A DNA stretch of 51,878 nucleotides from an uncultured Candidatus Saccharibacteria bacterium (GTDB lineage Bacteria > Patescibacteriota > Minisyncoccia > Minisyncoccales > Staskawiczbacteraceae). The stretch spans positions 130,864 through 182,741 of the forward strand of contig CAYRVC010000002.1 in assembly GCA_964427585.1 (NCBI GenBank), given 5' to 3'. The notes below the pieces were generated by a model. That model searched no databases. It saw nothing but the letters and a program-made list of their open reading frames with translations, and was not told the origin of the DNA. The position numbers were made by a program, and so were the translations under genes. Shown here in pieces: positions 4,770 through 45,431 of this stretch (position 1 is its first letter; every line of letters begins with the position of its first letter).

Positions 4770-4779
4770 AATGTTAAAA

Positions 4780-5229
4780 CTAAAACGGAGACTTAAACCA
4801 ATTCCCGATATCTTTGTATCCCAGCGCGCTTAAAATGAAATTAATAATTACCCAAGAGCAGAAAACCAGAACTAATCCTATTATTGAAATCCATAGAATC
4901 CTTTTGCCCTGGCTTGCCAAATTAGGATTCCCGCCCGAAATAATAATCATCACGGCTCCTATGGTAAGCATAAAAACCGCCAAGGGCGCAGCTATATTCC
5001 ATACCATAAAATCAAAGATATTGCTAAGCAATATAAAAACATGATAAAGCTGACAGCGGCATACAGGGTCAAACGTAGTAGCATTTTTTGATTCTATGTT
5101 GCAGGGAACGATTCCTGTTTCCCCTCCGTTTGATTCATCACAAGATTCATTTTGCTCCTGGGCATAGATGTAAAAGATTGGAGATAAAATTACAATCGAT
5201 ATTAAAAATATTAAAAAAACTTTATTCAT
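4780..5229 (-). CDS. VirB2/TrbC-like (T4SS pilin-type) membrane protein with Cys-rich N-terminus
   Basis: Signal-like N-terminus, GIVPC...CRCQL, two hydrophobic helices joined by ISGGNPNLASQGK, the same loop as in the pilin array at 45.5-48.6 kb. Confidence 0.7.
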   Translation of the reverse strand: MNKVFLIFLISIVILSPIFYIYAQEQNESCDESNGGETGIVPCNIESKNATTFDPVCRCQLYHVFILLSNIFDFMVWNIAAPLAVFMLTIGAVMIIISGGNPNLASQGKRILWISIIGLVLVFCSWVIINFILSALGYKDIGNWFKSPF

Positions 5230-5313
5230 TTATTTTGGGCTTGTTTATTATTTATTTTATCATTATAACATAAAAAATAAAAGGAAGAAAAAATTTTTTC
5301 TCCCTTATTCTTT

Positions 5314-6465
5314 TCAAAATTGCGGTATTATTTCTCCTTTTTCTTTTTTCCAAATTAAATCTTCTGCACAACTTTTAGCAGCCCTTACCCCGTTTCCATT
5401 TATGTATGTCCAATTTTTTCCGCCATCCCTTGATTCGATTGTTCTATCTAAGCCATCGGCCATAAAAGACGAGAAGTCCGACATAGAAAAAAGAATCGCA
5501 ACAATATGTTGTTCCCCTGTTGCTTCAATTCTTACAATCTTATTTGCAATACCAAGCATATCTCCGGAAGGTTCCTTATAGTCATGTTTTTCAATGCGCA
5601 AAACCATTTTCCAATTTTTTCCGCCGTTCTCTGTCTTATAGATATAAGAAGATGATCGCGACAGTATGCCTATTCTATCATATTCCCAAAATAATGATAC
5701 AAAGCCCGTATTTTTATTTACAAAAACTATACTAGAAATAAGCGGTGTTCGAAAATCACCATCACCGCCCACATCTAATGTGCTGTAAATTTTCCAATCT
5801 ATTCCGCCGTCTTCACTCAACGCTACTGCTGGCATTGTCAGAAGAGGCGAATTGTCTGAATCTAAAGTGTCTAAAAATAAACCTCTTTCTGAAAAAGGAC
5901 GAGCATCTTCCCTTATTACTAAATTTCCACCATTCCAAATACAATTGTCTATTGCGTAGAAATAACTAGAAGAATAAAAATGAAATCCCTTTTCTTTTAA
6001 ATTTTTTTCTATTTTTTCTTTTCCGCCCAGTGCCCTCTCAATTTTTTCATTTTGATCCTCATAAAGTCGCTGTATCTCATATTGGTCTGTTATTCTTTTT
6101 CCTCTTTTTTTCTCTTCTTCTGCTCTTATTTTTTCATCCTTCTCTTTTTTTATTTTCCTTTTTATTTCTTCCTTTTCCGCGGATTCGTGGCGAGTTACAT
6201 AACTCGGAGAGATCTTTTTTATGACTTTTGTTTCCACCATATTAACAGACCAGTCAATCGTTTTATAAATTATCACCAAAATTATTATTATAATAAACAG
6301 ACATCCGAGAGGATCAAAATCTCCGTCGCTACCTCCCCCTCCGCCTCCGGTTACTTCCGGTTTTTCGCGTTTGGTTCTTACGGTAACTTCTCCGCCTTTT
6401 TTTACATCATAAGTCCTGGGCGACTCGCCGCTTGTTTCCACTCTGACCCTGCCTCGCTTGGTCAT
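5314..6465 (-). CDS. Membrane-anchored protein with BNR/Asp-box repeats
   Basis: Single TM segment (LGCLFIIIIILVII), coiled-coil stalk, three Asp-box-like motifs SEDGGIDW, TENGGKNW, SRDGGKNW. AT-rich; start uncertain. Confidence 0.65.
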   Translation of the reverse strand: MTKRGRVRVETSGESPRTYDVKKGGEVTVRTKREKPEVTGGGGGGSDGDFDPLGCLFIIIIILVIIYKTIDWSVNMVETKVIKKISPSYVTRHESAEKEEIKRKIKKEKDEKIRAEEEKKRGKRITDQYEIQRLYEDQNEKIERALGGKEKIEKNLKEKGFHFYSSSYFYAIDNCIWNGGNLVIREDARPFSERGLFLDTLDSDNSPLLTMPAVALSEDGGIDWKIYSTLDVGGDGDFRTPLISSIVFVNKNTGFVSLFWEYDRIGILSRSSSYIYKTENGGKNWKMVLRIEKHDYKEPSGDMLGIANKIVRIEATGEQHIVAILFSMSDFSSFMADGLDRTIESRDGGKNWTYINGNGVRAAKSCAEDLIWKKEKGEIIPQF

Positions 6466-6520
6466 AGTTTGGCTCCCTATCTTTGTAAAGCCCGTGAAAT
6501 TGTAAAGGTGCTTGTAAATT

Positions 6521-6595
6521 TGGTGCCCCTGGAAGGATTCGAACCCTCAACATTTGCTTCGAAGGCAAAGATGATATCCATTTCACCACAGGGGC
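6521..6595 (-). tRNA. tRNA-Arg(TCG)
   Basis: GCCCCTG/CAGGGGC acceptor, anticodon arm TTTGC-CT-TCG-AA-GCAAA, encoded CCA. Confidence 0.93.
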
Positions 6596-6665
6596 TTTTT
6601 AATTATAATTTTGCCATAAAAATTGAAAAAAAACAAGTTTTGGTTTAATATAAAATGAAGAACTT

Positions 6666-8156
6666 ATGTTAATTCCGAAAGAAATAAAATCTATTTTGGA
6701 AAAACTCCAAAAAGCGGGTTTTGAGGCGTATATCGTGGGCGGATGCGCGCGGGATTTTTTACTGGAAAGGGAGCCTAAAGATTGGGACATAACCACAAAC
6801 GCCAAGCCGGAAGAAATACAAAAAATATTTCCCGACAGTTTTTATGAAAATAGTTTTTTGACGGTAAGCGTCAGAACCGGCAGTAAAAACGCAAAATTGC
6901 GGGAAATTGAAATTACAACCTACCGCTCTGAAGCCAAATATTCCGATAAAAGGCACCCTGACCAGGTAAAATTCGCCAAAACCCTGGAGGAAGATTTGGC
7001 AAGAAGGGATTTCACCATTAACGCTATTGCGATAGATTTGAAAATTAATAAATTGAGAAATTCATTGAAAATTGAAAATTGTAAATTGAAAATTGTTGAC
7101 CCGTTTGGCGGACAGGAGGATTTGAAAAATAAAACAATCAGGGCAGTTGGCAACGCGGAGGAAAGGTTTAACGAGGATGCCTTAAGGATGATGAGGGCAG
7201 TGAGGTTTGCGGCAACTTTAAATTTTGAGATTGAGAAAAATACGGCAGAGGCAATTAAAAAAAATTCTCCGTGGATGAAAGAGATTTCCGAAGAAAGGAT
7301 AAGGGACGAGTTTTTAAAGATTATAATGTCAGAAAGGGCGGCCGAAGGAGTGGAGATTTTAAGAGAATTGGGATTGTTAAAACATATTATTCCCGAGCTT
7401 GAAGAAGGCTTCGGGGTTTCTCAGAATAAGCACCATATTTACGACTGCTATCAGCACCTTTTAAAATCATTGGAATACGCCGTAAAAAAGAAATTCAATC
7501 TGCATGTGCGGTTGGCTGCGCTTTTTCACGATATTGCCAAACCAAGGGTTAAAAGGGGCGAAGGCGAAGAAGCGACATTTTATAACCACGAAATCGTGGG
7601 GGCTAAAATGACATTTTCAATATTAAACCGCCTGAAATTTCCCAAAAAAGACGTTGAAAAAATTTCAAAGCTGGTAAAATTCCATTTGTTTTATTATAAT
7701 GTGGGCGAGGTGTCGGAATCTTCTGTGAGGAGATTGGTAAAAAACGTGGGGTCAGAAAACATAGACGAGCTTTTAGAGGTAAGGCAGGCTGACAGAATAG
7801 GATCCGGGGTTCCCAAGGCGGAGCCCTATAAACTAAGGCATTTAAAGTACATAATAGAAAAAATCAGCAAAGACCCGATATCAGCGAAAATGCTTAAAAT
7901 AAACGGAGACGATATAATGAAACTTCTAAAAATAAAGCCGGGGCCGAAAGTCGGCCATATTTTAGACATTCTTTTGAAGTCCGTTATAGACGACCCGGAA
8001 AAAAATAAAAAAGAATTTTTAGAAAAAGAAACAGTAAGGCTGGGAAATCTAAGCGACAGAGAGCTTGAGAAATCGGCCCAAGGATCAAAAGAAGAGATAG
8101 AAAAGATAGAAACCAAAAAAGACCAAATGACCAAAGAAAAATACTGGGTAACTTAA
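6666..8156 (+). CDS. cca: CCA tRNA nucleotidyltransferase / poly(A) polymerase family with HD domain
   Basis: YIVGGCARD, DWDITTNA, EDLARRDFTINA, EDALRMMRAVRF, LFHDIAKP motifs. Confidence 0.9.
   Translation: MLIPKEIKSILEKLQKAGFEAYIVGGCARDFLLEREPKDWDITTNAKPEEIQKIFPDSFYENSFLTVSVRTGSKNAKLREIEITTYRSEAKYSDKRHPDQVKFAKTLEEDLARRDFTINAIAIDLKINKLRNSLKIENCKLKIVDPFGGQEDLKNKTIRAVGNAEERFNEDALRMMRAVRFAATLNFEIEKNTAEAIKKNSPWMKEISEERIRDEFLKIIMSERAAEGVEILRELGLLKHIIPELEEGFGVSQNKHHIYDCYQHLLKSLEYAVKKKFNLHVRLAALFHDIAKPRVKRGEGEEATFYNHEIVGAKMTFSILNRLKFPKKDVEKISKLVKFHLFYYNVGEVSESSVRRLVKNVGSENIDELLEVRQADRIGSGVPKAEPYKLRHLKYIIEKISKDPISAKMLKINGDDIMKLLKIKPGPKVGHILDILLKSVIDDPEKNKKEFLEKETVRLGNLSDRELEKSAQGSKEEIEKIETKKDQMTKEKYWVT
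7038..7094 (+). repeat. AT-rich TTGAAAATT-type repeat tract inside the cca coding sequence
   Basis: ttgaaaatt/gaaaatt/gtaaatt units encode KINKLRNSLKIENCKLKI between NAIAID and VDPFGG. Confidence 0.75.
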
Positions 8157-8191
8157 TAAAATTAAAAATCAAATATCAAAAATCAAAATTA

Positions 8192-8265
8192 CGGAGCGTG
8201 GTGTAACGGCAACATGCACCCTTCGGGAGGGTGAGATTTTGTGGGTTCGAATCCCACCGCTCCGA
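8192..8265 (+). tRNA. tRNA-Pro(CGG)
   Basis: CGGAGCG/CGCTCCG acceptor, CACCC-TT-CGG-GA-GGGTG anticodon arm, GTGGG-TTCGAAT-CCCAC T-arm. Confidence 0.92.
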
Positions 8266-8315
8266 CAGATTTTAATTTTAAAAATAATTAATAATAAATA
8301 TTAGAAGTTAAAATT

Positions 8316-8735
8316 ATGGCAACTTGGATATTTTTTGCGTTGGGATCCGCGGCTTTTGCCGCATTGGTGGCGATTTTCGGGAAAATAGGAATTACTGGCA
8401 TTGATTCTACTTTAGCCACGACTGTCAGGGCGGTTATTATGGCAGTGTTTCTTGTAATCGTCGCGTTGTTGTTCGGCAAAGGGCAGTTAATCGGAACAAT
8501 AACATTAAGGCCGTTTTCTTTTATTGTTTTGTCGGGGGTGGCGGGAGCTCTTTCCTGGCTTTGTTATTTTTTTGCCTTGAAATACGGCCCGGCTGCCGGG
8601 GTGGCGGCTTTAGACAGATTAAGCGTTGTTTTTGTTTTGTTTTTTGCCGCTTTGTTTTTAGCCGAAAAGCTCACCTGGAAAACCTTAATCGGCAGCATTT
8701 TAATCACAGCCGGCGCTTTATTCATGGTTTTATAG
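8316..8735 (+). CDS. EamA/DMT family small transporter
   Basis: Hydrophobic 139 aa with IDSTLATTVRAV, LSWLCYFFALK, LDRLSVVFVL. Confidence 0.88.
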   Translation: MATWIFFALGSAAFAALVAIFGKIGITGIDSTLATTVRAVIMAVFLVIVALLFGKGQLIGTITLRPFSFIVLSGVAGALSWLCYFFALKYGPAAGVAALDRLSVVFVLFFAALFLAEKLTWKTLIGSILITAGALFMVL

Positions 8736-8793
8736 GTAATTTTTCATTAAATTAAAAATTTGAAATTAAAAATTCCCCGCCAAGGCGGGGCCT

Positions 8794-8864
8794 GGGCCTA
8801 TAGTAAAATGGCATTACGCGGCATTCGCATTGCCGAGTTCCGGGTTCGACTCCCGGTGGGTCCA
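8794..8864 (+). tRNA. tRNA-Ala(CGC)
   Basis: GGGCCTA/TGGGTCC acceptor with the G3:U70 alanine determinant; CGGCA-TT-CGC-AT-TGCCG anticodon arm. Confidence 0.93.
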
Positions 8865-8876
8865 CTAAACTGAGTT

Positions 8877-11514: not shown

Positions 11515-12456
11515 ATGTTAAAAAATTGTGGAGTAGTTGAACCTGAAGACAAAAGATACCCTCTGAAATTGAAGGAAGCGCTAAAAAAATTGGCGCCCAG
11601 TTTGGGGCCGAAAAGATTGTATTATAAAGGAAACTGGCCCCTCGACGCGGCTCAGGGCGGGTCTGATATTTTCAAAGAGTGTTTGGCGGTTGTGGGGTCA
11701 AGGCATTTGACTTCTTATGGCAGAAGGGCGACAGAACAATTGGTAACAGAGGCGGCGGCCACAGGCATTACAATAGTTTCCGGATTTATGTACGGCGGCG
11801 ATGAAGCTGCCCATTCTGCTGCTGTCAAATGCGGAGGCAGAACAATTGCCGTTATGCCCTGCGGAATAAACATAATACACCCTGAAAGCCAAAAAAAGCT
11901 TTACGAGGAAATTTTGGAAAATAACGGCCTTATAATTTCTGAATATGAAAATGATTTTTTGCCTCAAAACTGGTCTTATCTGCAAAGAAACCGCCTGGTG
12001 GCCGGCTTAGCTAAGGCGGTTTTAGTTACCGAAGCTGCTTTAGACAGCGGAAGTCTGATTACGGCAGGATATGCCAAAAAATTCGGCAGAAAAATTTTTG
12101 CATTGCCGGGCCAAATTTTCAGCGAAGTTTCTAAGGGAACAATAAAATTGATAAAAGAAGGGGCCGAGCCGGTAACGGAGGCAAACGATATTTTAAGTTT
12201 TTTCAAGGTTTTAGTCAATCCGGTTAGAGCGGAAGGAAAAGGGTCTCCGACACCCCACAATTGGGGGGTGTCGGAGACCCCCCTAATTGCTTCTTTAGAG
12301 CGGAAAATTCTTGACCAGCTAAAACGCGAACCAATGGAAGCCGACGACATGGCAAGATTATTTAGTGTACCAGTCGCCCAACTCGGCACCACATTGTCTT
12401 TAATGCAATTAAAAGGTCAAATTTCAAATGACTCTGGAAAATATTATATAAATTAA
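11515..12456 (+). CDS. dprA: DNA-processing protein DprA
   Basis: LAVVGSR, TIVSGFMYGGD, SEYEND, QRNRLVAGL, EAALDSGSLITA, C-terminal winged helix; linked to comM and yraN. Confidence 0.92.
   Translation: MLKNCGVVEPEDKRYPLKLKEALKKLAPSLGPKRLYYKGNWPLDAAQGGSDIFKECLAVVGSRHLTSYGRRATEQLVTEAAATGITIVSGFMYGGDEAAHSAAVKCGGRTIAVMPCGINIIHPESQKKLYEEILENNGLIISEYENDFLPQNWSYLQRNRLVAGLAKAVLVTEAALDSGSLITAGYAKKFGRKIFALPGQIFSEVSKGTIKLIKEGAEPVTEANDILSFFKVLVNPVRAEGKGSPTPHNWGVSETPLIASLERKILDQLKREPMEADDMARLFSVPVAQLGTTLSLMQLKGQISNDSGKYYIN
11638..11658 (+). repeat. Small palindromic repeat (CCnTCG..GCTCAGGGC family) in dprA
   Basis: cccctcgacgcggctcagggc resembles cccttcggcaagctcagggc in nusA (16824-16843). Confidence 0.6.
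12241..12280. repeat. Perfect 16-bp inverted repeat inside dprA
   Basis: gggtctccgacacccc-N8-ggggtgtcggagaccc, in frame (GSPTPHNWGVSETP). Confidence 0.9.
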
Positions 12457-12461
12457 TTTTT

Positions 12462-12953
12462 ATGGATAAGCAAATAATAATTAAATTGCATAAAAATTTT
12501 GAAGATTGCGCGCGCGATAAAAATAGTGTGGAATTTTGGTATGCAAGGGAGTTGCAGAATCTGTTGGGTTACGATCGTTGGGAAAATTTTGAGAATGCGA
12601 TAAAGAAAGCAAAAATCGCCTGCGAGAATGCTAAGCAAAATATTTTAGATCATTTTCGTGACACCACGAAAACGATATCAATGCCCAAAGGAGCAAGTAG
12701 GGAAATATCAGACATTATGCTTACTCGCTATGCTTGCTATTTGATTGCACAAAATGGCGACCCAAGAAAAGATGAAATTGCTTTTGCCATGACCTATTTT
12801 GCTGTGCAGACTAGAAAACAAGAAGTTATAGAAAAAAGATTGGCTGAAATTGAACGGATAAAAGCAAGAGAAAAACTTTCTGTTTCAGAAAAAGTTTTGT
12901 CTGGAGTTTTGTTTGAAAGAGGGGTTGCATGTGTTACCTTAAACAAAAGCTAA
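12462..12953 (+). pseudogene. dinD: Truncated DinD-like (DNA damage-inducible protein D) gene
   Basis: FWYARELQ.LLGY..WENF, DIMLTRYACYLIAQNGDPRK.EIAFA..YFAVQTRKQE. Similarity stops at LSGVLFERGV, about half the usual length. Confidence 0.7.
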
Positions 12954-25327: not shown

Positions 25328-25553
25328 AGTTTTTTAAAAATACGCGCCTGGTCTTCCCAGAATGGAACACCATCAAAAGCGTTATTTTACGTTTGAAAGG
25401 GGTATTTCAAACCTATTCTCTCGCCTGAACAGATAAATACCTGACATTTTATATGCTAAGCATACCACCAAAATATCCACAAATCAATTAATTGTTATCA
25501 TCAGATGTTTGTATTTCTCATTTATTTTGATACAATGAGGTAATATTAAAGCC

Positions 25554-27806
25554 ATGGAAAGACGCACATCTGGCGCAGAACAAACGCCTGAAGAGGAGCC
25601 TTCTTTAGCTCCCGAGCAGGATTATAAAGCCATAGAACCCGAAAAGACAGAACAAGAAAAACCAATTGAAAGTTTTTCTGATTTTTCATTGGAACAGCAG
25701 GAGGAAATTTTATATAAGCAAAAAATACTTTCGTCCTTGGCGTATTTTATCGGCAAGGATTTTCATATTCCCGTAGAGCTCAATAAACCGGGGGCCGGTT
25801 GGCATTGGGATTTTAAAAATAACGTGATCAGGGTTGACCCCAAGGATCTGTTGGAAAAATCAATGGATGTTCTCAGATTCATTATTTGCCACGAAGGAGG
25901 CCACCGACGAATTTCCAGGACTGATTTTATCCCAACCGAACAGTGGCGCCAGCAAGGTTTCCCTTTCATGATGAACGCCATTGAAGATGGTAGGGATAAT
26001 AACTTTGTGGCGGAAAGCTATCCAAAGTTTGCCGACCAGATGGCATTGGCATATAACGAATTTGCTGAACTTGAAGCCAAAGCAAAAGAATCATCCAAAG
26101 AAAAACTGGGGCAACAGCCGAGGTTTATGAAAGCTGGTTTTGAATATTTGAAGCAATGGTTCCGTGAAACTCAAGGACAGGCTTTTGAAATATCAGAAGA
26201 CCTTCCGGAAGAAGTGAAAGCAGTTGTCGCCAAAACTCTAAAATCAGCCCAAGATTCCTGGTTAACCTATCCATCTCGAAAAGAAGCCGATGCAGGAGGC
26301 AATATAGGAAAGAAAAAAGTTGATGGAGAAACAATAATCGGTGAATTTGCAAAGCGTTCTTATGAAATTAACCGGGATGAAGTCTGGCCTGAATTTAAAA
26401 AGTTGGTTGATATGGACATAGAAGACCAAAAAATGCAGGAAGCGCTTGATGATATGCAAAAGAATCAAGAAGAAGGGTCGCCGGACGGCAAGGATTTACC
26501 ACAGGACTTAAAAGATAAGCTTACAAAAGAGGAACAGGAGGCGTTGAAAGAAGCCATTAAAAAAGCGCTGGGCGAACCACAAAAAGAGGGAGAAAAACAA
26601 CCTGAAGATGGTGAACAGCAAGAAAGTGGCCAACCATCCGAGGATCAAGAGGGTGGAGAAGAAGAGCCAGAAGCCAAAAAGAAATCTTTTAAACCTGTTG
26701 ATTTGGACGCTTTGTCAAAAGAGTTAAAACAAAAAATAAAAGAATATATTGATTCTCTCCCGGAGGAAAAACAGGAAGCAATGGAAGAAAGCGCAAAAGC
26801 CAGGTTAAAAGAATTTGAAGATTCTTTAAACGAAGAGTTGCAGGGTAAACTGTCCGAAACACCCGAAGATGTGGTCGGTAAAAAAGAGCAAGCGGCAGAA
26901 CCGGAAAGCGACGGCAAAAAGACAGATTGGGAAAAAGAAGAAAGGAAGCAGGCGCAAAAGCGGGTTGACGTACGCAAAAAAATGGAAGCGACTCTGGAAA
27001 GTGGAGAGAAAAACACTTATGGAAAAACGCTGGAGAAGGTGGCTGATTTGGTTGACAAGATGACAGCGGATTTAAGGGATATTTTTATCAAAAGAAAAGA
27101 GGAAAAATATGAAAGCGGGTATCGCTCGGGGCGCCGCTGGAATATCAGGAAAAGAATCAGAGAAAAAATCGCCCAAATACCTTTATTAAAAACCGAGGCC
27201 CGAGAACAGCCGGAAAGCGAAAGCGAGGAAATGGACTATGCCATCACGCTGATGGTTGATTTATCCGGATCAATGAGGAGCAATAAAAAAATCCAGGAGG
27301 CGTTTAAATCAGCTGTTATTTTGGCTGAAACATTAAATAATCTTGGCGTTAAATTTGAAATCGTCGGATTTCAGGATATTTTGCTCGAATTTAAATCGTT
27401 TGAGGATAATTTTGACGACAGGGTGCGGGATAAACTCAGCCAAATGATTTTAGAAGTATATGGGAATAATCCTGGAGGTCATAATAACCCTTCAGATAAT
27501 GATGATGGAGCATGCCTAAAAAAGGCCTCGGAGCACCTGGAAGAGCAGGCAGCCAAAAATAAGGTGCTGTTTGTAATTTCCGACGGTATTCCTGAAACAG
27601 AAAATAAAAGCAGGAGTCAGCTCGACAGGGAACTTAAGGAAGCGGTAGCAGAAATATCTATCAATACAAGCCAGAAGCTGGTTGGCCTTGGATTGAACTC
27701 AGAGGCTGTCAAAAATTACTACCCAAATAATATATCGGGTGTTGATGCTAAAGAAATGGCTGAAACACTGGCCGGTTTATTAAGGGAAGTAATTGAAAAA
27801 TATTAA
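25554..27806 (+). CDS. vWA (MIDAS) protein with N-terminal HExxH putative metallopeptidase domain and acidic linker
   Basis: FIICHEGGH and NAIEDGRDN near the N-terminus; E/Q/K-rich linker; C-terminal LMVDLSGSM, EIVGF, NDDG, LFVISDG (CobT/NorD-like vWA). Confidence 0.85.
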   Translation: MERRTSGAEQTPEEEPSLAPEQDYKAIEPEKTEQEKPIESFSDFSLEQQEEILYKQKILSSLAYFIGKDFHIPVELNKPGAGWHWDFKNNVIRVDPKDLLEKSMDVLRFIICHEGGHRRISRTDFIPTEQWRQQGFPFMMNAIEDGRDNNFVAESYPKFADQMALAYNEFAELEAKAKESSKEKLGQQPRFMKAGFEYLKQWFRETQGQAFEISEDLPEEVKAVVAKTLKSAQDSWLTYPSRKEADAGGNIGKKKVDGETIIGEFAKRSYEINRDEVWPEFKKLVDMDIEDQKMQEALDDMQKNQEEGSPDGKDLPQDLKDKLTKEEQEALKEAIKKALGEPQKEGEKQPEDGEQQESGQPSEDQEGGEEEPEAKKKSFKPVDLDALSKELKQKIKEYIDSLPEEKQEAMEESAKARLKEFEDSLNEELQGKLSETPEDVVGKKEQAAEPESDGKKTDWEKEERKQAQKRVDVRKKMEATLESGEKNTYGKTLEKVADLVDKMTADLRDIFIKRKEEKYESGYRSGRRWNIRKRIREKIAQIPLLKTEAREQPESESEEMDYAITLMVDLSGSMRSNKKIQEAFKSAVILAETLNNLGVKFEIVGFQDILLEFKSFEDNFDDRVRDKLSQMILEVYGNNPGGHNNPSDNDDGACLKKASEHLEEQAAKNKVLFVISDGIPETENKSRSQLDRELKEAVAEISINTSQKLVGLGLNSEAVKNYYPNNISGVDAKEMAETLAGLLREVIEKY

Positions 27807-27837
27807 AATATTCAGTAGAATAAGCAAATCACTATTC

Positions 27838-28266
27838 ATGAAGAAATTACAAGAAGAAATCAGTCAATTTTCAAATGCCAGCCTGTCTTTAGGGAAGGCC
27901 GGTTTGATTATTTTGGAAAAACAAAAGGATTATGCCGCAAACCTGAAAAAGTTGGAAAAGACACTGTCAAACTTGGGGTATAAAAAAAGCAATGATTATG
28001 TTGACTTAATGGATGATTTATCTTCAGGGAAAAACAGGATTTTTTATGTTGAGCATGACAAAAAGCTTGACGGTTTTGCCTTGGAAATCATTGCTGAGTT
28101 TGAAGCGGGAATCGTAAGCTTGGCTGATAGAAAAAACAAGTCAGGGCTCAAAACAGCAACATGGAATCCCCTGAAGACTTCTATGATAATCGTCATGGCG
28201 CGAAAACAAATAGAAAATAGCTACCCGCGTCTTTTTGAATATATAAATTTAACGAAATCAATTTAA
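27838..28266 (+). CDS. Small hypothetical protein between the vWA and AAA+ genes
   Basis: Open frame; its TAA overlaps the ATG of the AAA+ gene (TAATG). ATG 27838 preferred over the track TTG at 27793. Confidence 0.7.
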   Translation: MKKLQEEISQFSNASLSLGKAGLIILEKQKDYAANLKKLEKTLSNLGYKKSNDYVDLMDDLSSGKNRIFYVEHDKKLDGFALEIIAEFEAGIVSLADRKNKSGLKTATWNPLKTSMIIVMARKQIENSYPRLFEYINLTKSI

Positions 28267-30347
28267 TGCCTAGTCCAGAGCAAAGGGCAAGCGACCCTGA
28301 GCCGCAATTAACACAGGAGGAGGTTGTTGAAAATATTCCAAATCCAGAATATCCGTATATTGTAATAAAAGAAAAATCAGTTTCTTATCTTGGCGTTGAA
28401 GTGCCAAAATCAGAAGGCGGCCGATTAGTGCCCAAAGAATCTGAATTCAAGGAAGAATACTTTTACTTAGAGGGTCATCATGAAACCATGAGGGAAATTG
28501 CCACTTCCCTGCTTTTAAATAAGCCTATTTTGCTTGAAGGAGGAACAGGAGTTTATAATAAGACGACTACTGTGGCCAAAATGTGCAAGGATTTAAATGC
28601 TAATTACTGCAAGGTGAATTTTGACCGGGAAACAGCCAGAGAAGATGTAATAGGAGGTCAGACTTTGAAAGTTGATGAGAATGGAAAAGAGAAACTTGAA
28701 TGGTATGACGGAGACCTGATGTATGCTATAAGAAATGGCGGCGTGGCCTTTTTGGACGAGTATAACCGTCAAAGCAAACTGGCGGGAATTATCAATCCCA
28801 TTATTGATGCCATATTAAACGGCAGGAAGGAAATTACTAATCCCTATAACGAAAATGAACGGGTTGCGGTTCACCCCGATTTCAGGCTGGTTGCGGCCCA
28901 GAATCCACCAGGCTTTGAGGGAGGACACGAGTACACTGACAGAAACCAACTGCCTGCCGAAACCTTTGGCAGATGGATTTACAAAAAACTGCCCATTGAA
29001 TATACCGAAGAGCAGGAAAATAAACTTTTTGCGGGTATGATTGGCGAGGATGTGGAACTTAATATTCCTGAATCGGAATTTCGTCATCCTGGCGAAGGCA
29101 TCCCGGTAAAAGAATTGGCTGAAGTTCCGGGCATGGTTCATTGGAGAAGAGAGATTATTACCATTTTGAGAACCTTAGAAGCAAAGTCATCAGGATCCAA
29201 ACGGGAAATGGCCAAGAATCAACGCCAGAATCTTTACTTTAACCCAAGATTGAAAAAAACCATCATTGACTACATTGCCAGATTCTACAACGGCGATATT
29301 AATGAAACCGTAAAAAACGGGTTTGAAACCTGTATTGTGGGAATGTATAGCTCACAAGAGGATAAGCAGAAAGTCAGGCTTTTGCTGGACCAGGCATCTT
29401 GGACTGCGCCAAAAGTTGAATCCAAACGAAGGGGGCTGGAAACAAGAGGCATCGAAGCTGGAAAAAAAAGAAAACTCATTGATGAAATAGAAACTCTGAA
29501 ATCAGAAATTGAAGACAGCGGCAAATTGCCGGAAACTCTCAAAACATCAGAAGCCGATAAGGAAGAAAATCCCATTATTAAAGGAAAAACCGAAAAAGGG
29601 GAGCCGGTAGAATTTAATTTTGAACAAATTAAAAGCAAGGTAGTTGATTTTAATCGAAACCAGGGTCTGGAAGAATTAGCCAATGTGATAGAGAGCAGCT
29701 CAATCTCTTTAACTAAAGAACAGCAGAAAGCCATCGTGGAAATGGTTGAAAAAGAAGGCTTTGATTCTGCTTGGATTTTCCCCGGCAATGAAATGATGCG
29801 GGAAAATTCGGTAAAAATAAAAGAAGGGACAGAGAAGGATATGGAGGGGCTGGATCCAAGGAATCAGTACAGCGAAGAAGGAACATATCTTTACAACGAA
29901 GTATCGTTTGAATTCCCAGATAAGATACAAAATAATAACCGGCCGGATAAACCCTACGTGCTTTTATACAAATCCAATCTTGAAACTGATGAAGAGACGA
30001 GAAAATCCCTTAAGGGGTTAGATGATAAAGAAGTTGATAATTCAGCGGAAAATCTTAGGAAGTATTTTGAGAAACGAGGCATTAAGGGACTAACCCTAGA
30101 AGAATACTTTGTCTTGCAAAGAGTAATAACGGAAAACAATAAGGCTGAGGAAAATCCCCACCCCGACACCAAAAATTGGACATGGTTATTGGATTCTGAA
30201 TTATCACCGGATTCCAAAAATCCCGGTCGGGTCTTGCGGGCTCATTGGAATCCCGGCTATCGGCGGGTCAGGGTGGGTTCGAATACTCCTGGCCTTTCCT
30301 ATCCGTCTGTTGGGGCTCGCTCCTCAGCCATCTTTGAAATACTTTGA
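28266..30347 (+). CDS. MoxR/AAA_5-type AAA+ protein fused to a C-terminal DGR target (C-type lectin-fold-like) domain
   Basis: PILLEGGTGVYNKTT (variant Walker A), AFLDEYN (Walker B), HPDFRLVAAQNP, FGRW; C-terminus LTLEEY..LQR...HPD.KNWTWLLDS...GRVL.AHWNP...VGARSS typical of DGR variable proteins; a DGR-type RT remnant follows. Confidence 0.85.
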   Translation: MPSPEQRASDPEPQLTQEEVVENIPNPEYPYIVIKEKSVSYLGVEVPKSEGGRLVPKESEFKEEYFYLEGHHETMREIATSLLLNKPILLEGGTGVYNKTTTVAKMCKDLNANYCKVNFDRETAREDVIGGQTLKVDENGKEKLEWYDGDLMYAIRNGGVAFLDEYNRQSKLAGIINPIIDAILNGRKEITNPYNENERVAVHPDFRLVAAQNPPGFEGGHEYTDRNQLPAETFGRWIYKKLPIEYTEEQENKLFAGMIGEDVELNIPESEFRHPGEGIPVKELAEVPGMVHWRREIITILRTLEAKSSGSKREMAKNQRQNLYFNPRLKKTIIDYIARFYNGDINETVKNGFETCIVGMYSSQEDKQKVRLLLDQASWTAPKVESKRRGLETRGIEAGKKRKLIDEIETLKSEIEDSGKLPETLKTSEADKEENPIIKGKTEKGEPVEFNFEQIKSKVVDFNRNQGLEELANVIESSSISLTKEQQKAIVEMVEKEGFDSAWIFPGNEMMRENSVKIKEGTEKDMEGLDPRNQYSEEGTYLYNEVSFEFPDKIQNNNRPDKPYVLLYKSNLETDEETRKSLKGLDDKEVDNSAENLRKYFEKRGIKGLTLEEYFVLQRVITENNKAEENPHPDTKNWTWLLDSELSPDSKNPGRVLRAHWNPGYRRVRVGSNTPGLSYPSVGARSSAIFEIL
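30222..30329 (+). other. Putative DGR variable region (VR)
   Basis: Only 10 A in 108 nt at the 3' end of a strongly A-rich gene; many NNT codons among W/P/G/R scaffold residues. Confidence 0.65.
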
Positions 30348-30429
30348 TGTTTGGACCTTTAAGCTTTGATGATTTGGTTTTAATATTTAATCCTTAATTT
30401 TCGTCCGCCGCAAATTTTTACTCAATGCG

Positions 30430-31302
30430 CATTGCCCGTATAAAAAGTTTGTAATTTGCGACCCCAAAGAAAGGATAATCCATAAGTCCGCGCTAGTTGA
30501 TAGGATTGTCCATCAGATGATTTTTAATTATTTAAACCCCATATTCGAAGACAGGTTTATTTTTGACATATATGCTTCGATAAAATGCCGGGGAAATCAC
30601 TTAGTGGTTAAAAATTTCAGGATGAAATGCTTAAGAGAAAGCCGAGGGGGAAGGAGGGTGATTTGGGTATTAAAATGCGATATCAAGAAATTCTTTGATA
30701 GCATCGACCACAAAATCCTATTTTCTTTTATTGCAAAACAGGTTAAGGACGAGAAAATCCTTAAATTAATAAAAGACATATTGTTCAGCTATAATGTATT
30801 ACCGGGCAAAGGCCTCCCCTTAGGCAACCTAACCAGCCAACTTTTTGCCAATATTTATCTTCACGAGCTCGATTACCATGTAAAGCACGTTTTGAAGATA
30901 AAAAACTATGTTCGGTTTAATGATGATTTTGTTATCATTTCTGAAGATAAAAATATTTTGCAGGATTTTTCGGCAAAAATTAAAGAATTTTTACATGACA
31001 GGCTGGAACTAAGCCTCCCTAATAACAAAACATCAACAAGAAAATTCATGTGGTGAATAGACTTTTTGGGATATATAGCCTTGCCCGGAGGATTTTTATT
31101 AAGAAAGAAAACCAAAAAAAGAATGTTCCGCAAGATTGAAGAGAGAAGCATCAAATACCTGAAAAACAAAATATCTTTTAATAAGAAAAATCAAACAGTA
31201 AATTCTTACTTGGGGATGATAAAAAACTGCAATTCCTTCAGATTAAATCAAAAAGTCCTATTAACGCTATTGCTAATGGATGAAAAAAGTTTTGATGTTT
31301 AG
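30430..31302 (+). pseudogene. Decayed DGR-type reverse transcriptase (5'-truncated, one in-frame TGA)
   Basis: One frame reads HCPYKKFVICDPKERIIHKSALVDRIVHQ, VLKCDIKKFFDSIDH, GLPLGNLTSQLFANIYL, YVRFNDDF, then MW*IDFLGY with TGA at 31054-31056. Track ORFs 30517-31056 and 31066-31302 are the same frame. No start codon after the upstream TAA at 30388-30390 until 30517. Confidence 0.9.
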
Positions 31303-31423: not shown

Positions 31424-31509
31424 TGGTGCCCGGAGTGGGAGTCGAACCCACATGAGCTTTCGCTCAAAGGATTTTAAGTCCTTCGTGTATACCATTCCAC
31501 CACCCGGGC
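31424..31509 (-). tRNA. tRNA-Leu(TAA)
   Basis: GCCCGGG/TCCGGGC acceptor, AAGGA-CT-TAA-AA-TCCTT, long variable arm TGAGC-GAAA-GCTCA, encoded CCA. Confidence 0.95.
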
Positions 31510-31516
31510 ATGTCTT

Positions 31517-32254
31517 TTATATTATTTTAAAAGTTGTACGTATTTTATTTTTCCAACTAGATTTATTTTTTTCTAAGAAATAATCATATTTTTTAGAAAA
31601 ATTTTGTGTTTTAGAAATATTTAAAAATTCTGCTTTTCTGTCCATTCCAACTGGATAATTTGTGTAGTACATAAATCTTAATAATTTTAATGTGTCATAC
31701 GTGCCATATCCCAATTTAAGTGAACTGCCATCATTATATCCACATATTTTCTTTTTAAATAAACCTAGTTTCTTGTACAAAATATCCTGAAGGCTTTCTA
31801 AAAATTCAATACTCCCCGAAGTAAAATTACTCCTTAACTCTGATCGTGATTTTTTATTCTTCGTATTTATATAATTCACAAAGAATACGCTTCCATCTCC
31901 ATCAAAATATCCCCTAATAAAATCTGGCAAGAATTTGTTTGGAACCGGGGGAAAAATAACTTTTCTGCTTTTACATCTTACTCCACCAAGTTCTAATAGT
32001 TTCGAATACAATTTTTTAGAAAATATAATTAGATCTTTACTATCATCTCTCTTTCGAAAAATTATTTTATGATCTGAATCTAAACATTTTCTTATAGAAA
32101 GTAATATATTAACATCCTTTGAGCAAAAACTAATTCTATAAGATTTTTCATGACGCATATACCCGTCGGCGAACCAAAACCCTAAAACATATGCCATTTT
32201 TGGACACCATTCATCAAAAAAATTCTCATTAATAAAATACTTTTTTGCCAACAT
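31517..32254 (-). mobile_element. Free-standing double-motif LAGLIDADG homing endonuclease gene (245 aa)
   Basis: AYVLGFWFADG and FIRGYFDGDG motifs; AT-rich. ATG at 32254; the track start lies inside tRNA-Cys. Confidence 0.88.
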
Positions 32255-32255
32255 A

Positions 32256-32331
32256 TGGAGGCGGCGATGAGATTCGCACTCATGTATAGTGGTTTTGCAG
32301 ACCACTGCGTTAGCTTCTTCGCCACGCCGCC
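32256..32331 (-). tRNA. tRNA-Cys(GCA)
   Basis: GGCGGCG/CGCCGCC acceptor, discriminator U, GCA anticodon, encoded CCA; T-loop reads TGCGAAT. Confidence 0.9.
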
Positions 32332-32361
32332 TTATTACCTTCCATTTTATTCCATTCTACT

Positions 32362-32709
32362 TTATTTTTCCTCTTTTTTCAACGATTCCAGCAACTCCTC
32401 CACCCTGCCCAACCTGCCTGTTTCTTCGTCATTTGCAAATTTGATTTTAGGGATGGGGCGCATATTCAGTTTTTTGTTTATTTTTTGCTGAATATGAAAA
32501 ACATCTTTATTCAAAATTTTAAAAACTTCACCCGATTTGTTTTCGGGAAATGTTGAAACATAAACTTTTGCCTCAATTAAATTTGAAGTTGTTTCAACGC
32601 GGGTTAGGGTAACCATGACTCCGTCGGGAAAAGAGATTTCCCTAAGGATTATTCCGCTTATTTCCCGCTTCAGCAAGGAGTTCACTTTTTCAACGCGATT
32701 GCTTGGCAT
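32362..32709 (-). CDS. rbfA: Ribosome-binding factor A
   Basis: RVEKVNSLLKREIS, VTLTRVETT, MRPIPKIKF; follows infB. Confidence 0.92.
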   Translation of the reverse strand: MPSNRVEKVNSLLKREISGIILREISFPDGVMVTLTRVETTSNLIEAKVYVSTFPENKSGEVFKILNKDVFHIQQKINKKLNMRPIPKIKFANDEETGRLGRVEELLESLKKEEK

Positions 32710-32730
32710 ATTGATTCTTGTTTGAAGTTT

Positions 32731-34248
32731 TTATAACTCGCCCTTTTTCCGCTCTTCTGTATATGCCGCCAAAATATCTCCCTTTTCAATCTTCACGTTT
32801 CCTTCAAATAAAATTCCTGCTTCGTCGCCTTTTACCAGGCGGTCTGCATTTTTTTTATCGCGCTGGAGGTTGATTATTTTTCCCGCCCCTGTTTTTTTGT
32901 TATCCCGGACAACTTCCAGCTTCAATCCTTTTTTTAATTCGCCTTCAATGATTTTTCCGCCGACAATCTGGCGGTTTTTTTCTCCCCAGAAAACAAGCAG
33001 TGTTTTTAGTTTGCCGATGTCTTTTCTGATGATTTCCGGTTCCAGTTTTTTTTCCAGACCCTGCCTTATGTCCTGTATCAGTTCGTAAATCACATTGAAT
33101 ATTTTAATCCTTAACTGCTTTTCCATATCGTTTTTCATAAACCTTACAACCTCTGGAGACATTTTTACCCTGAAGCCGATTATTTGGGCTTTTGACATTT
33201 TTGCAAGTTTCAGGTCGTTTTCTGAAATATCGCCTGCCTCCGACTTTAAAATCCTTAAAATAACCTTATCCTGAGGCAAGTTTTTCAGCATTGATTCTAT
33301 CGCCTCCAGCGAGCCGAAAACGTCAGCTTTTAAGATTATATTAAGTATTTTTTTATCGGGGTCTGTTTCAAGCACCGTTGAGCCGATTTCTCTTTTCGGC
33401 CCTTCTTTTTTTAATTTTTGTTCAGCCTCCTCAACTGTTTTGTAACTTTTAAATTTTTCTCCGACTGCCGGAACTTTTTCAAATCCCAGAACAATTGCCG
33501 GCTGTGAGGGTTTTGCTTCTTCAATTTCTTTGCCCTGGAAATTCTGCAAAGACCTCACTTTTGCCAAAGCCAAATCCGTGGCTATTATATCCTTTTTTCT
33601 TAAAATTCCTTTTTTAACAATAACAGTGGCAATAGGGCCTTTTAAGCCGTGCATATAGGATTCGATTACCAGCCCTTCGCTTGGAACATCTGTTTTTGCT
33701 TTTAATTCTTTGATGTCGGCCATCAGCAAAATTATTTCCAGCAGTTCAGGTATCCCTGTTTTTTCTTTCGCAGACACCTCAACCGATGGAATGTCGCCCC
33801 CCATTGATTCTGCCAAAATATTGATTTTTGCCAGTTCTCCTTTTATTTTTTCAGGGTTGGCTGTCGGCAGGTCAATTTTGTTTAAAACAATAATCATGGG
33901 GATTTCCGCCATTTTTATTGCCGCTATCGCTTCTTTTGTCTGCGGTTGCACCGATTGGGCGGCATCAATAACCAATAGGGCGATATCTGCCACACTGGCT
34001 CCCCTCGCCCTCATCGCGGAAAACGCCTCGTGCCCGGGCGTATCTATAAAGGTTATTTTTTTTCCCTTTTCTTCCACCTCGTAAGCTCCTATATGCTGGG
34101 TAATTCCGCCTGACTCTTTGGAGGTTATTTTAAAATCCCTGATAGCTTCCAAAAGGGAAGATTTTCCATGGTCCACATGGCCTAAAACAACCGCCACCGG
34201 CGGCCTTGTTTTTATATCCTCGTTTTGTTTTTTATTATTTTCAGCCAT
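32731..34248 (-). CDS. infB: Translation initiation factor IF-2 (short form without the long N-terminal domain)
   Basis: RPPVAVVLGHVDHGKSSLL, GGITQHIGAY, DTPGHEAF, NKID, ILKADVFGSLEAI. Confidence 0.97.
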   Translation of the reverse strand: MAENNKKQNEDIKTRPPVAVVLGHVDHGKSSLLEAIRDFKITSKESGGITQHIGAYEVEEKGKKITFIDTPGHEAFSAMRARGASVADIALLVIDAAQSVQPQTKEAIAAIKMAEIPMIIVLNKIDLPTANPEKIKGELAKINILAESMGGDIPSVEVSAKEKTGIPELLEIILLMADIKELKAKTDVPSEGLVIESYMHGLKGPIATVIVKKGILRKKDIIATDLALAKVRSLQNFQGKEIEEAKPSQPAIVLGFEKVPAVGEKFKSYKTVEEAEQKLKKEGPKREIGSTVLETDPDKKILNIILKADVFGSLEAIESMLKNLPQDKVILRILKSEAGDISENDLKLAKMSKAQIIGFRVKMSPEVVRFMKNDMEKQLRIKIFNVIYELIQDIRQGLEKKLEPEIIRKDIGKLKTLLVFWGEKNRQIVGGKIIEGELKKGLKLEVVRDNKKTGAGKIINLQRDKKNADRLVKGDEAGILFEGNVKIEKGDILAAYTEERKKGEL

Positions 34249-34300
34249 TAAAATAAATATTAAACAGGCGATTTTTTTGTTATCGCCTTATTCTTTTCAT

Positions 34301-34389
34301 TGGCGGAGGAGGTGGGACTCGAACCCACAAGACAGCTTGCGCCGTCAAAGTTTAGCAAACTTTTGGAATAACCATTATCCGACTCCTCC
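34301..34389 (-). tRNA. tRNA-Ser(GCT)
   Basis: GGAGGAG/CTCCTCC acceptor, AAAGT-TT-GCT-AA-ACTTT, long variable arm, discriminator G, encoded CCA. Confidence 0.93.
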
Positions 34390-34471
34390 AGTTGATTTTT
34401 TATTTTACTATTTAAAATCAATTAAGTCAATTTGATTTTATGAATATTTGTGATATGGTTAAAATAATAAT

Positions 34472-34544
34472 GCGCCCGTAGTTTAATGGATAAAACGTAG
34501 GGTTGCGGACCCTAAAACTGCAGGTTCGATTCCTGCCGGGCGCA
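34472..34544 (+). tRNA. tRNA-Arg(GCG)
   Basis: GCGCCCG/CGGGCGC acceptor, TAGGG-TT-GCG-GA-CCCTA, GCAGG-TTCGATT-CCTGC. Confidence 0.93.
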
Positions 34545-34547
34545 CAT

Positions 34548-37238: not shown

Positions 37239-38777
37239 CTATTTGCGTATTTTTTCAGTGACCCAAAATCCCATATGTTTGCCCAGCATCAGGCGGATTT
37301 GGGCGTCTAAGGCGGGAAAAGAGCCGAATACGATTAATGTCACAGGCAACAGCAGCCACTGTAAAAATATGGACATCCTTTTTCTCAATCTTATATAGCG
37401 CCCGAATTTTTTAGGCAGAGGCGGCAGAAGCATCGTGCTTAAAATGGCGGAAACGAACATTCCGATAAGAGAGACTGTCATTATTCTGCTGGTAAGAATG
37501 GGAAGGTTGAAGGAAAGGATGGTAAGGTTGAATTTTTCCCCTCCTAAAATTAATGGCAGCCATCCTAAAACAAACAGCAGGAGGGCGGCTGTGGACCATG
37601 ACCAGAAGCCGTCGATTATCGTGTACAAATGGGAGATTTTTTTCAAAGAGGAAATTTTTTTGTTTTTCCAGAAACCGAAAATTATGTAAGGTATTTCGCT
37701 ACAGCCCCAGGCCCAGCGTTTTTGCTGTTTATACTGGTTTATTATTGTTTTAAAAAAGCTTAAAGTCATTACGGCATCCATTGAAACCAGGTAATAAATG
37801 GGCACTACCCGGTAATCGCCGTCGTAGCAAAGATAAGCCCTCCAGAAGATTCTGGAATCGTCGGAAACAACGTTTGCCGGATATCCCACTTCAAAAAATA
37901 CCTTGCCGGGAATGGAGTGGGAAGAATATGTGGTAAGCTTTTCCGCCCTTTCCTGCTGAATCATCTGCCAAAAGGTGTTGGATGTTGAGACAACCCTGGC
38001 AAAGGCGGAAGCAGACCAGATGTTATTGTTATAAACCGGAATAGGCTGATAACTTGCTTTTAAAGGATTTTCCATTGCCAGGTAATACCATGTGAGGCAC
38101 GCAAAATATTGAGGATAAACTTTAGTGTCTATGTCAAAACTTGAAACCAAGATATTCTCGTAAGGAATTTTTGATTCGTCTATGAATTTTTTGGCTTCTT
38201 TCCCTGCCCAGGCGACATTAGACCCCTTCCCGCTTATTTCCCCAGGTATATTGTCTGGGTGGGCGGATATCAAAAATTTATAAAAATTGGAGCCATATTT
38301 TTTTGCGATGGTTTCTGCCGCTTCTTCTGCCTTTTGTCCGGCCCGTTTTTCTATTGCCAGGACAACTATCATTTTTTCTTTCGGATAATTTGAATTTACC
38401 AAAGAATCAATGGTTTCTTTTATTATTTCCGGGCCCTCTTTGTATGTGGGCAGGATTATAAGGTGGTATATATTTTTCCATTCGCGGTTTTTTTTAAGAG
38501 CCCTCATCCAGTCTTTTTTCAAATGACTTTTTATTTTAAAGTAGCTTACGATCTGGTGCAGAGAAAAATAAACTACCCTGAAAAGATAATAAAGGCAGAA
38601 ACAAATTATAAATATGGCCACGTATGAGGGAATCAGCCAAGAAAAAACAAGAACTCCGAAAAGAGTTCCCAAGCTTAAAATTCCAGGAATGGTTTCCAGC
38701 AGGCGGTATAACAATCTTTCTTTTTGGTTTTTTATATCGCCGGCTTTTGAAATATCCAGATAATCTTTTTTTTCCAT
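37239..38777 (-). CDS. Processive-type GT2 family membrane glycosyltransferase
   Basis: HLIILPTYKE, SGKGSNVAWA, SSFDIDT, VVSDDSRIFW, QQKRWAWG, flanking TM helices. ATG at 38777; the track start runs through tRNA-Glu. Confidence 0.88.
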   Translation of the reverse strand: MEKKDYLDISKAGDIKNQKERLLYRLLETIPGILSLGTLFGVLVFSWLIPSYVAIFIICFCLYYLFRVVYFSLHQIVSYFKIKSHLKKDWMRALKKNREWKNIYHLIILPTYKEGPEIIKETIDSLVNSNYPKEKMIVVLAIEKRAGQKAEEAAETIAKKYGSNFYKFLISAHPDNIPGEISGKGSNVAWAGKEAKKFIDESKIPYENILVSSFDIDTKVYPQYFACLTWYYLAMENPLKASYQPIPVYNNNIWSASAFARVVSTSNTFWQMIQQERAEKLTTYSSHSIPGKVFFEVGYPANVVSDDSRIFWRAYLCYDGDYRVVPIYYLVSMDAVMTLSFFKTIINQYKQQKRWAWGCSEIPYIIFGFWKNKKISSLKKISHLYTIIDGFWSWSTAALLLFVLGWLPLILGGEKFNLTILSFNLPILTSRIMTVSLIGMFVSAILSTMLLPPLPKKFGRYIRLRKRMSIFLQWLLLPVTLIVFGSFPALDAQIRLMLGKHMGFWVTEKIRK

Positions 38778-38854
38778 GGTGGCCCCAACCGGATTTGAAC
38801 CGGTGTTCTCAGCTTGAAAAGCTGGTGTACTGGACCAGGCTATACGATGGGGCC
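38777..38854 (-). tRNA. tRNA-Glu(TTC)
   Basis: GGCCCCA/TGGGGCC acceptor, loop TT-TTC-AA, T-loop TTCAAAT, encoded CCA. Confidence 0.93.
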
Positions 38855-45336: not shown

Positions 45337-45349
45337 ATTTTTAACTTCG

Positions 45350-45431
45350 TGCCGCGGGAGAGATTTGAACTCTCAATCCTTTCGGAACATGCTCCTAAGG
45401 CATGCGCGTATTCCAGTTCCGCCACCGCGGC
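45350..45431 (-). tRNA. tRNA-Leu(TAG)
   Basis: GCCGCGG/CCGCGGC acceptor, CATGC-CT-TAG-GA-GCATG, variable arm TCC-GAAA-GGA. Confidence 0.94.

Follow-up and report, generated by a model that had tools for sequence, protein, structure and literature searches.

A zincin–vWA, small-protein and AAA+ ATPase operon with a DGR-type variable region and a degraded DGR engine in Patescibacteria

The window studied here is a stretch of 51,878 nucleotides from an uncultured Candidatus Saccharibacteria bacterium (GenBank assembly GCA_964427585.1, contig CAYRVC010000002.1, positions 130,864 to 182,741, forward strand). Positions 25554–31302 of the window hold three co-oriented genes, followed by the remnant of a reverse transcriptase (RT) gene of a diversity-generating retroelement (DGR). 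The three genes (the triad) encode a zincin–von Willebrand factor A (vWA) protein, an orphan small protein, and a MoxR-class AAA+ ATPase. By homology, the C-terminus of the window ATPase is a genuine DGR variable region (VR). The engine that wrote it is apparently lost from this locus and retained in many of its relatives.

The three-gene operon and its products

Gene 1 (25554–27806, + strand) is an ORF of 750 aa with the architecture zincin–acidic linker–vWA. Gene 2 (27838–28266, + strand) encodes 142 aa when read from the ATG at 27838, which is the start in its relatives; an upstream TTG at 27793 would give 157 aa. Gene 3 (28266–30347, + strand) is an ORF of 693 aa encoding the ATPase with its C-terminal module. 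The TAA stop of gene 2 shares the sequence TAATG with the ATG of gene 3 at 28264–28268. A first-pass annotation, made from the sequence of the window, had described three co-oriented genes with this TAATG overlap, and the ORFs and the overlap were both present. Its reading would fail if the triad were not kept together across genomes. The vWA–small–AAA order was found in 21 of 21 loci with sequence upstream of the AAA gene, out of 22 GTDB-representative loci, and also in the metagenome contigs examined, as that reading requires.

Sequence divergence was compared between the window and the sibling locus L001. The ratio of nonsynonymous to synonymous substitution rates (dN/dS) was 0.055 for gene 1, 0.07 for gene 2, and 0.039 for the AAA core of gene 3, indicating that the triad is upheld by purifying selection. 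The host genomes of the triad loci were mostly Patescibacteria. The triad was also present in representative genomes with other labels, namely an archaeon metagenome-assembled genome (MAG; L013), two Bdellovibrionota MAGs (L018 and L027), a Gammaproteobacteria MAG (L022), and a Dadabacteria MAG (L026). These triads may reflect horizontal spread or binning contamination.

The gene 1 product has three parts. The zincin-like N-domain spans residues ~41–290, followed by an acidic, charged linker (residues ~291–510, 29% D+E) and a C-terminal vWA domain with a metal ion-dependent adhesion site (MIDAS; residues ~555–750). The family comprises more than 558 homologues of equal length and architecture. 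The HEGGH zinc-binding/catalytic motif (H113, E114, H117; residues 113–117) is encoded at 25890–25904, and a candidate third ligand, E144/D145 (25983–25988), lies within the motif NAIEDGRDN (residues 141–149). The MIDAS DxSxS motif is DLSGS (D569, S571, S573; residues 569–573; 27258–27272), located from invariant columns and the VWA_2/CobT_C alignment. All three motifs had been picked out in the first-pass annotation, and their eight key residues (H113, E114, H117, E144, D145, D569, S571, and S573) were invariant in 36 homologues. Pfam CobT_C matched gene 1 with 65 bits against a cut-off of 21, the CobT_C/VWA match covering residues ~555–700. Some databases label gene 1 homologues as CobT.

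The AlphaFold 2 model of gene 1 residues 41–310 had a predicted local distance difference test score (pLDDT) of 89.9. In a Foldseek search with the zincin-domain model, the top matches were selecase and jannalysin, with probabilities of 0.9–0.99 but E-values of 0.1–0.4; their TM-scores were 0.43–0.53 when normalized to the ~108-residue target. LTA4H came next. No curated peptidase family in Pfam matched the domain. The metallopeptidase call of the first-pass annotation is supported by the invariant HExxH plus E/D residues and by the minigluzincin fold matches. As modeled, the N-domain of gene 1 is a zincin fold with an intact HExxH + E/D active site, in which catalysis and the identity of the third ligand are putative. 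Minigluzincins (selecase and jannalysin) and M1 gluzincins (LTA4H) share the HExxH helix and a downstream acidic ligand with gene 1. The gene 1 domain differs from the minigluzincins in its size of ~250 residues with additional helices.

Wherever a locus includes the stretch from the vWA gene to the AAA gene, gene 2 is present there. At the loci that phmmer left without a small gene, a diverged ORF of ~135 aa occupied the gap. The small protein had no relatives in Pfam, NCBIfam, PHROG, or PADLOC, nor in a PDB profile search, and neither the 142-aa protein nor any of its 16 homologues matched a Pfam family, VMAP included. Among 1.84 billion proteins, it formed only 20 representative clusters, which, short fragments aside, were stand-alone proteins of ~120–160 aa.

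Gene 3 contains a MoxR-class AAA+ core similar to CbbQ, NorQ, and CobS at residues ~70–390, assigned from Pfam AAA_5 and PDB sequence matches. AAA_5 matched residues 88–220 with a score of 49.4 bits (cut-off, 22), and the closest solved relatives of the core in the PDB sequence search were CbbQ, NorQ, and CobS. The CobS equivalog (TIGR01650) scored 28.7 bits, with its cut-off at 558.55, and the GvpN score was also far under its cut-off of 267, indicating that gene 3 encodes a MoxR-class AAA+ protein and not a chelatase subunit. The 73 gene 3 homologues are ~690 aa long and conserved in their N-terminal halves; D164, E165, N213, and R236, which cover the Walker B, sensor, and Arg positions, are invariant. 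D164 and E165 form the Walker B DE (28755–28760). Gene 3 departs from the canonical Walker A motif GxxxxGK[ST]. Its Walker A, GGTGVYNKT (residues 92–100; 28539–28565), carries a one-residue insertion and an Asn in place of the Gly before Lys. GVYNKT is common to 36 of the 73 homologues, the rest having GxGKT, indicating that the variant is selected and is not a lesion. In every locus that includes upstream sequence, a vWA partner with MIDAS adjoins the ATPase. No signal peptide or transmembrane (TM) segment was predicted in any of the three triad proteins.

The variable region and the lost DGR engine

Most RTs of candidate phyla radiation (CPR) bacteria belong to DGRs. The C-terminal module of gene 3 is 250 aa long (residues 441–693; 29586–30344, + strand) and is supported by 27 stand-alone homologues and an AlphaFold 2 model. 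The VR lies at its end (residues 653–690, ~38 codons; 30222–30335, + strand) and aligns to the template repeats (TRs) of L001, L003, and L006. The ATPases of these three loci are the siblings of the window ATPase, with amino acid identities of 85% (L001), 78% (L003), and 80% (L006, a Staskawiczbacteria MAG). Between otherwise near-identical ATPase homologues, the last ~40 residues differed at fixed positions in a conserved scaffold. Mean pairwise identity among orthologues was 0.62 in the last ~45 residues versus 0.80 elsewhere.

Substitution patterns set the VR apart from its surroundings. The dN/dS values of the VR were 2.66 and 1.59, versus 0.02–0.15 in the remainder of gene 3. The value of 2.66 came from the comparison with L001, in which the module upstream of the VR had 0.065. 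In the same comparison, dS was 0.12 in the VR and ~1 elsewhere, as expected for a VR repeatedly overwritten from a conserved template. With L001 and L003 both considered, the rest of the gene is near saturation (dS 1–1.8).

Alignment of the window VR with the L003 TR gave mismatches at 18 adenine sites and at 2 non-adenine sites. In the TR, 20 of the 38 codons contain an adenine, and 8 of these are AAT. The VR has the 3' end GGGGCTCG[C/T]TCCTCAG, which a cognate TR would share. Within the sibling loci, TR–VR mismatches fell almost only on TR adenines, for example 16/16 in L006, 16/16 in L014, 22/22 in L017, 19/19 in L021, and 17/17 in L024. Of about 20 informative loci, 15 had an A-biased TR no more than ~3 kb from the 3' end of the ATPase gene, and bAvd was found in L001, L004, L006, L008–L011, L014–L017, L019, L021, L024, and L027. 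The sibling TRs with this adenine bias, together with the nearby bAvd and DGR-type RT, identified the C-terminus of the ATPase as a DGR variable region. Three expectations of the first-pass annotation were thus borne out, namely that the AAA+ protein ends in a DGR-type variable domain, that orthologues vary in excess at the C-terminus, and that the DGR accompanies the triad.

The L001 and L003 TRs showed one difference over the 114 nt aligned, so that conservation of the template far exceeds that of the neighboring genes. Strong constraint on the TR RNA is one possible cause, and transfer of the DGR module from one lineage to another is a second.

The fold of the module was modeled for residues 441–693 (pLDDT 95.4), with the VR placed in the terminal β-strands. 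In Foldseek against the PDB, formylglycine-generating enzyme (FGE), EgtB, C-type lectins, and Mtd were among the top matches, with E-values of 0.3–2.6 and probabilities of at most 0.35. A sequence-level link of the module to C-type lectins (CLec) or FGE-sulfatase was not found in Pfam or in the PDB profile search. From the model, a C-type lectin-like fold is possible. The search downstream of the VR for a GC-rich hairpin, the target-recognition element, gave only AT-rich palindromes in the window and in the siblings.

In intact relatives, the cassette runs from the triad through stand-alone module proteins, the TR, and bAvd (on the opposite strand) to the RT. The number of extra stand-alone module copies after the operon is 0–2. 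In L001, L003, and L006, one or two stand-alone proteins of ~340 aa share the 250-aa module of the ATPase and represent second or third targets.

In the window, the only trace of this engine is an N-terminally truncated, DGR-type RT pseudogene (30421–31302, + strand; Pfam RVT_1). The frame has RVT_1-type homology and begins downstream of the VR, the gap being given as 75 nt. It carries a FNDD box and the motif GNLTSQLFAN, which we take to be DGR-type motif 4. It begins immediately ahead of motif 1 (…YKKFVICDPKERI) without a start codon and is shorter than its relatives by ~57 N-terminal residues. It is interrupted by an in-frame TGA at 31054–31056 (+ strand). At this site, the relatives read W-G-[IV]-D-F-L-G, with the Gly encoded by GGA. 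The truncation, the missing start codon, and the in-frame TGA indicated that the window RT is a pseudogene. The downstream "DGR RT" of the first-pass annotation was therefore correctly recognized as RT-like with DGR motifs, but it is not an intact gene. An alternative genetic code with TGA as Gly was considered and rejected. Under code 11, 22 stop-to-stop frames that each span 250 codons or more (11,827 codons) were uninterrupted, and the relatives have GGA, pointing to a simple G→T nonsense change in the RT.

The rest of the engine was searched for throughout the window. No TR was found in the 51.9 kb by a repeat search (seed 6) or by blastn (word size 7) with the VR as query, and phmmer, run on all six frames of the entire window, detected neither an Avd nor a second RT or second target. 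Comparison with L001 located the loss. Window positions 25508–30398 are colinear with L001 5235–10140 at 82% nucleotide identity. The colinearity then leaps, with window 30430–30849 corresponding to L001 12217–12636 (break at L001 10140/11266). The deletion junction was placed at 30399–30430 from this break and from the RT alignment. Relative to L001, about 1–2 kb are missing, which carried avd and the TR as well as the second target and the initial ~57 codons of the RT.

The window sequence was 100% identical over 6.5–7.4 kb to JACOYW010000020.1 (MAG GCA_016181665.1) and to the SRR4343428 and SRR4343430 assemblies. An assembly artefact was rejected as the source of the deletion, since the GenBank MAG and the two independently made SRA assemblies agree completely across the junction. 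The identity of the three assemblies indicated that the deletion is real and that the VR is invariant among these samples. On this comparative evidence, the window locus is apparently a DGR relic with a frozen receptor, and its VR is apparently the fixed product of past mutagenic homing. The hypervariable receptor that the first-pass annotation placed on the ATPase was thus DGR-written, as proposed, but is no longer diversified from the window locus, whose engine is deleted.

Two siblings carry lesions of other kinds. The L001 RT (12046–12867) has lost everything after motif 4. L003 (11369–11900) keeps its TR, has avd reduced to 46 aa, and has no RT. TR and triad are intact in both. These different engine lesions next to intact TRs and triads suggested recurrent, independent RT loss. 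The window can be regarded as a natural "frozen" allele and, with its siblings, documents repeated, independent loss of the engine while the operon stayed under strong purifying selection.

The neighbors of the cassette differ among loci. A large serine recombinase (Resolvase + Recombinase + Zn_ribbon_recom) lies directly beside it in four loci (L001 3805–5118, L003 2172–3488, L014 12607–13095, and L015 7819–9159), and an rve transposase in L004. A ZIP transporter takes the recombinase's place in the window. These neighbors hint that the triad and DGR form a mobile unit.

Known MoxR–vWA systems, a proposed mechanism, and its rivals

Fusions of an AAA ATPase to a DGR target domain have been described. 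According to PMC10907252, which follows Paul et al. 2017 on this point, the AAA-ATPase–CLec fusion is the commonest DGR target of CPR bacteria. Dore et al. 2024 proposed that what the C-terminus senses is passed on as a signal by the ATPase (PMC10907252), and Wu et al. 2018 matched CPR "UVR4" targets to a Midasin/AAA domain (PMC5758913). The AAA-fused DGR targets of CPR and DPANN resemble the window in the phyla concerned and in an AAA_5-type ATPase with a C-terminal VR. Their cassettes comprise one or more targets, a TR, an opposite-strand avd, and an RT, and our sibling loci are exactly such cassettes, whereas the window copy is without TR, avd, and a working RT. For the CPR ATPase targets, a literature search with Paul et al. 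2017 outside its range found no description of zincin–vWA or small-protein partners. These fixed partners are the less documented part of the system.

The MoxR–vWA systems of the VMAP/iSTAND type (PMC7159879, PMC10907252) are close parallels. Kaur et al. 2020 described ternary MoxR–vWA conflict systems with DGR-diversified FGS (C-type lectin) domains in a survey that excluded CPR genomes (PMC7159879). Like the triad, the VMAP/iSTAND systems combine a MoxR AAA+ protein, a vWA protein, and a third component, and are intracellular; like the triad family, they have a linked peptidase and a DGR-diversified ligand-binding domain. They differ in where these parts reside. The VR/FGS domain is on the vWA protein or a separate target in VMAP/iSTAND systems and on the ATPase in the triad. 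Their peptidase is mostly a trypsin or caspase domain on the VMAP protein and is often inactive, whereas the triad has a zincin with intact HExxH fused to the vWA domain. In addition, CPR DGR RTs belong to clade 2, unlike the RT clade of VMAP/iSTAND-linked DGRs (PMC10907252), a statement made for CPR as a whole and not for the window RT.

NorQ–NorD, CbbQ–CbbO, and CobS–CobT gave the best matches to the AAA core. They too are encoded by adjacent genes and have a vWA partner with MIDAS and an acidic region. However, the triad scored far under their family cut-offs, and these pairs have defined metalloenzyme clients and no zincin, VR module, or small third protein. Phage CobS/CobT-like pairs (Vibrio phage ICP2, Roseobacter phage CRP-810, and the AAA protein of Staphylococcus Kayvirus) share distant vWA/AAA-core homology with the triad. 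Their identity is 24–29%, restricted to the cores, and they have no zincin, VR module, or DGR. Taken together, the ATPase–VR fusion is already published, and the fixed triad with the VR on the motor instead of the adaptor is a variant of the MoxR–vWA–DGR theme. The commonest DGR target of CPR is thereby placed in the MoxR–vWA remodeling paradigm, with a zincin–vWA protein and a dedicated small partner.

The explanation that we favor, and hold to be probable, is that the triad is the core of a cassette widespread in Patescibacteria, with a DGR-written VR, whose engine was deleted in the window, and which acts in MoxR–vWA-type recognition and proteolysis. The steps below were drawn by analogy with NorQ–NorD, CbbQ–CbbO, CobS–CobT, and the conflict systems of Kaur et al. 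2020 and Dore et al. 2024. The ATPase ring would display several copies of the diversified module. The module would capture a ligand in the cytoplasm, for which a protein from an invading phage or mobile element is the most plausible candidate. Ligand binding may then be coupled through ATP-driven remodeling to the vWA/MIDAS partner. The zincin domain of this partner would be the proteolytic output, either cleaving the captured ligand or being activated by its capture, with the small protein as an obligate adaptor or regulator. In the window, a deletion of ~1–2 kb took avd and the TR along with the extra target and the RT 5' end, and the RT remnant has gained its nonsense codon since; in this genome, the machine would now work with one fixed specificity.

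A bolder version can be offered only tentatively, and we consider it possible but doubtful. The triad would be a CPR-wide, DGR-programmable intracellular recognition-and-proteolysis machine, an adaptive-like immune sensor in which a hexamer shows six receptors and hands invader proteins to the vWA-tethered zincin. Lineages would repeatedly drop the engine once a useful specificity is fixed, as the different lesions in the window, L001, and L003 may illustrate. If true, this sensor reading would explain in mechanistic terms what the most frequent DGR target of CPR bacteria does.

Several observations weigh against the favored explanation. PADLOC found no defence-system profile, and Pfam detected no VMAP-like domain in the triad. 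The linkage of the three proteins is purely genomic, and defence, host interaction, and a housekeeping client all stay candidate roles. A significant match of the module to a C-type lectin or FGE was not obtained in Foldseek against the PDB, and the BFVD fold search was empty. The deviant Walker A GVYNKT in the window's subclade makes ATPase competence uncertain and could mean altered nucleotide handling. Finally, a cognate TR could exist outside the 51.9-kb window, in which case "frozen" would be wrong.

Four rival explanations were considered. The first assigns the cassette to a mobile element or prophage, which it would serve in place of the cell, for example in superinfection exclusion or counter-defence. 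The recombinases of L001, L003, L014, and L015 and the transposase of L004 would fit this, as would the tRNA-rich surroundings of the window copy and the PHROG families that match the vWA and AAA cores. However, no phage structural genes were present in any locus examined, and cultured phages have only the distant CobS/CobT-like cores described above, with no zincin or VR module. The flanks in the window and L005 are housekeeping genes (RNase Y, IF-2, RecG, tRNA synthetases, and gyrase). In the window, the neighbors RNase Y, RbfA, IF-2, and RecG indicated a chromosomal, not episomal, context. We consider a mobile-element function unlikely.

In the second, the diversified module recognizes molecules of the episymbiont's host cell instead of invaders. 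CPR and DPANN DGRs are commonly ascribed to host attachment (PMC8632793, PMC7495880), and the first-pass annotation had named a host-surface protein as one candidate substrate. A surface substrate is hard to reconcile with triad proteins that have no signal peptide or TM segment. An AAA+ ATPase also needs cytoplasmic ATP, and the architecture parallels the intracellular MoxR–vWA conflict systems (PMC7159879, PMC10907252). Host-cell recognition is thus improbable.

The third, implied by the first-pass annotation, holds that the locus is a currently active DGR, in which the downstream RT goes on diversifying the C-terminus of the ATPase. The RT-homologous frame with DGR-type motifs 75 nt downstream of the VR and the adenine-mutagenesis signature in the VR speak for this view. 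But the window has no TR or avd anywhere, its RT is without the ~57 N-terminal codons and the start, the in-frame TGA is not a sense codon here, and the VR is identical in three assemblies. Activity in cis is largely refuted, and we give it very little credence.

The last takes the ATPase and the vWA protein for a genuine CobS/CobT aerobic cobaltochelatase, or for some other chaperone that inserts metal into a housekeeping client, with the variable tail as an incidental feature. It is scarcely credible: the Pfam CobT_C match, the weak CobS/GvpN NCBIfam and CobS/NorQ/CbbQ PDB matches, and the CobT labels on homologues speak for it, but the CobS equivalog reached 28.7 bits against a cut-off of 558, gene 1 had no CobT equivalog match, the zincin domain, VR module, and orphan partner are foreign to CobST, the triad is tightly linked to DGR cassettes, and to our knowledge Patescibacteria lack cobalamin synthesis. 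A true CobST chelatase was rejected on scores and context.

Genes surrounding the window locus

The window contains ten tRNA genes (4696–8865, 31424–34545, 38777–38854, and 45349–45431), and an Rfam scan of the window found tRNAs only. Four of the ten are packed in 3.2 kb just downstream of the locus. Directly 3' of the RT remnant, between tRNA-Leu (31424–31509) and tRNA-Cys (32256–32331), lies a free-standing ORF for a LAGLIDADG-type homing endonuclease (31517–32305, − strand; PF14528, E = 2.6e-08). Its GTG start would overlap tRNA-Cys; the deposited annotation takes a later ATG, giving 245 aa.

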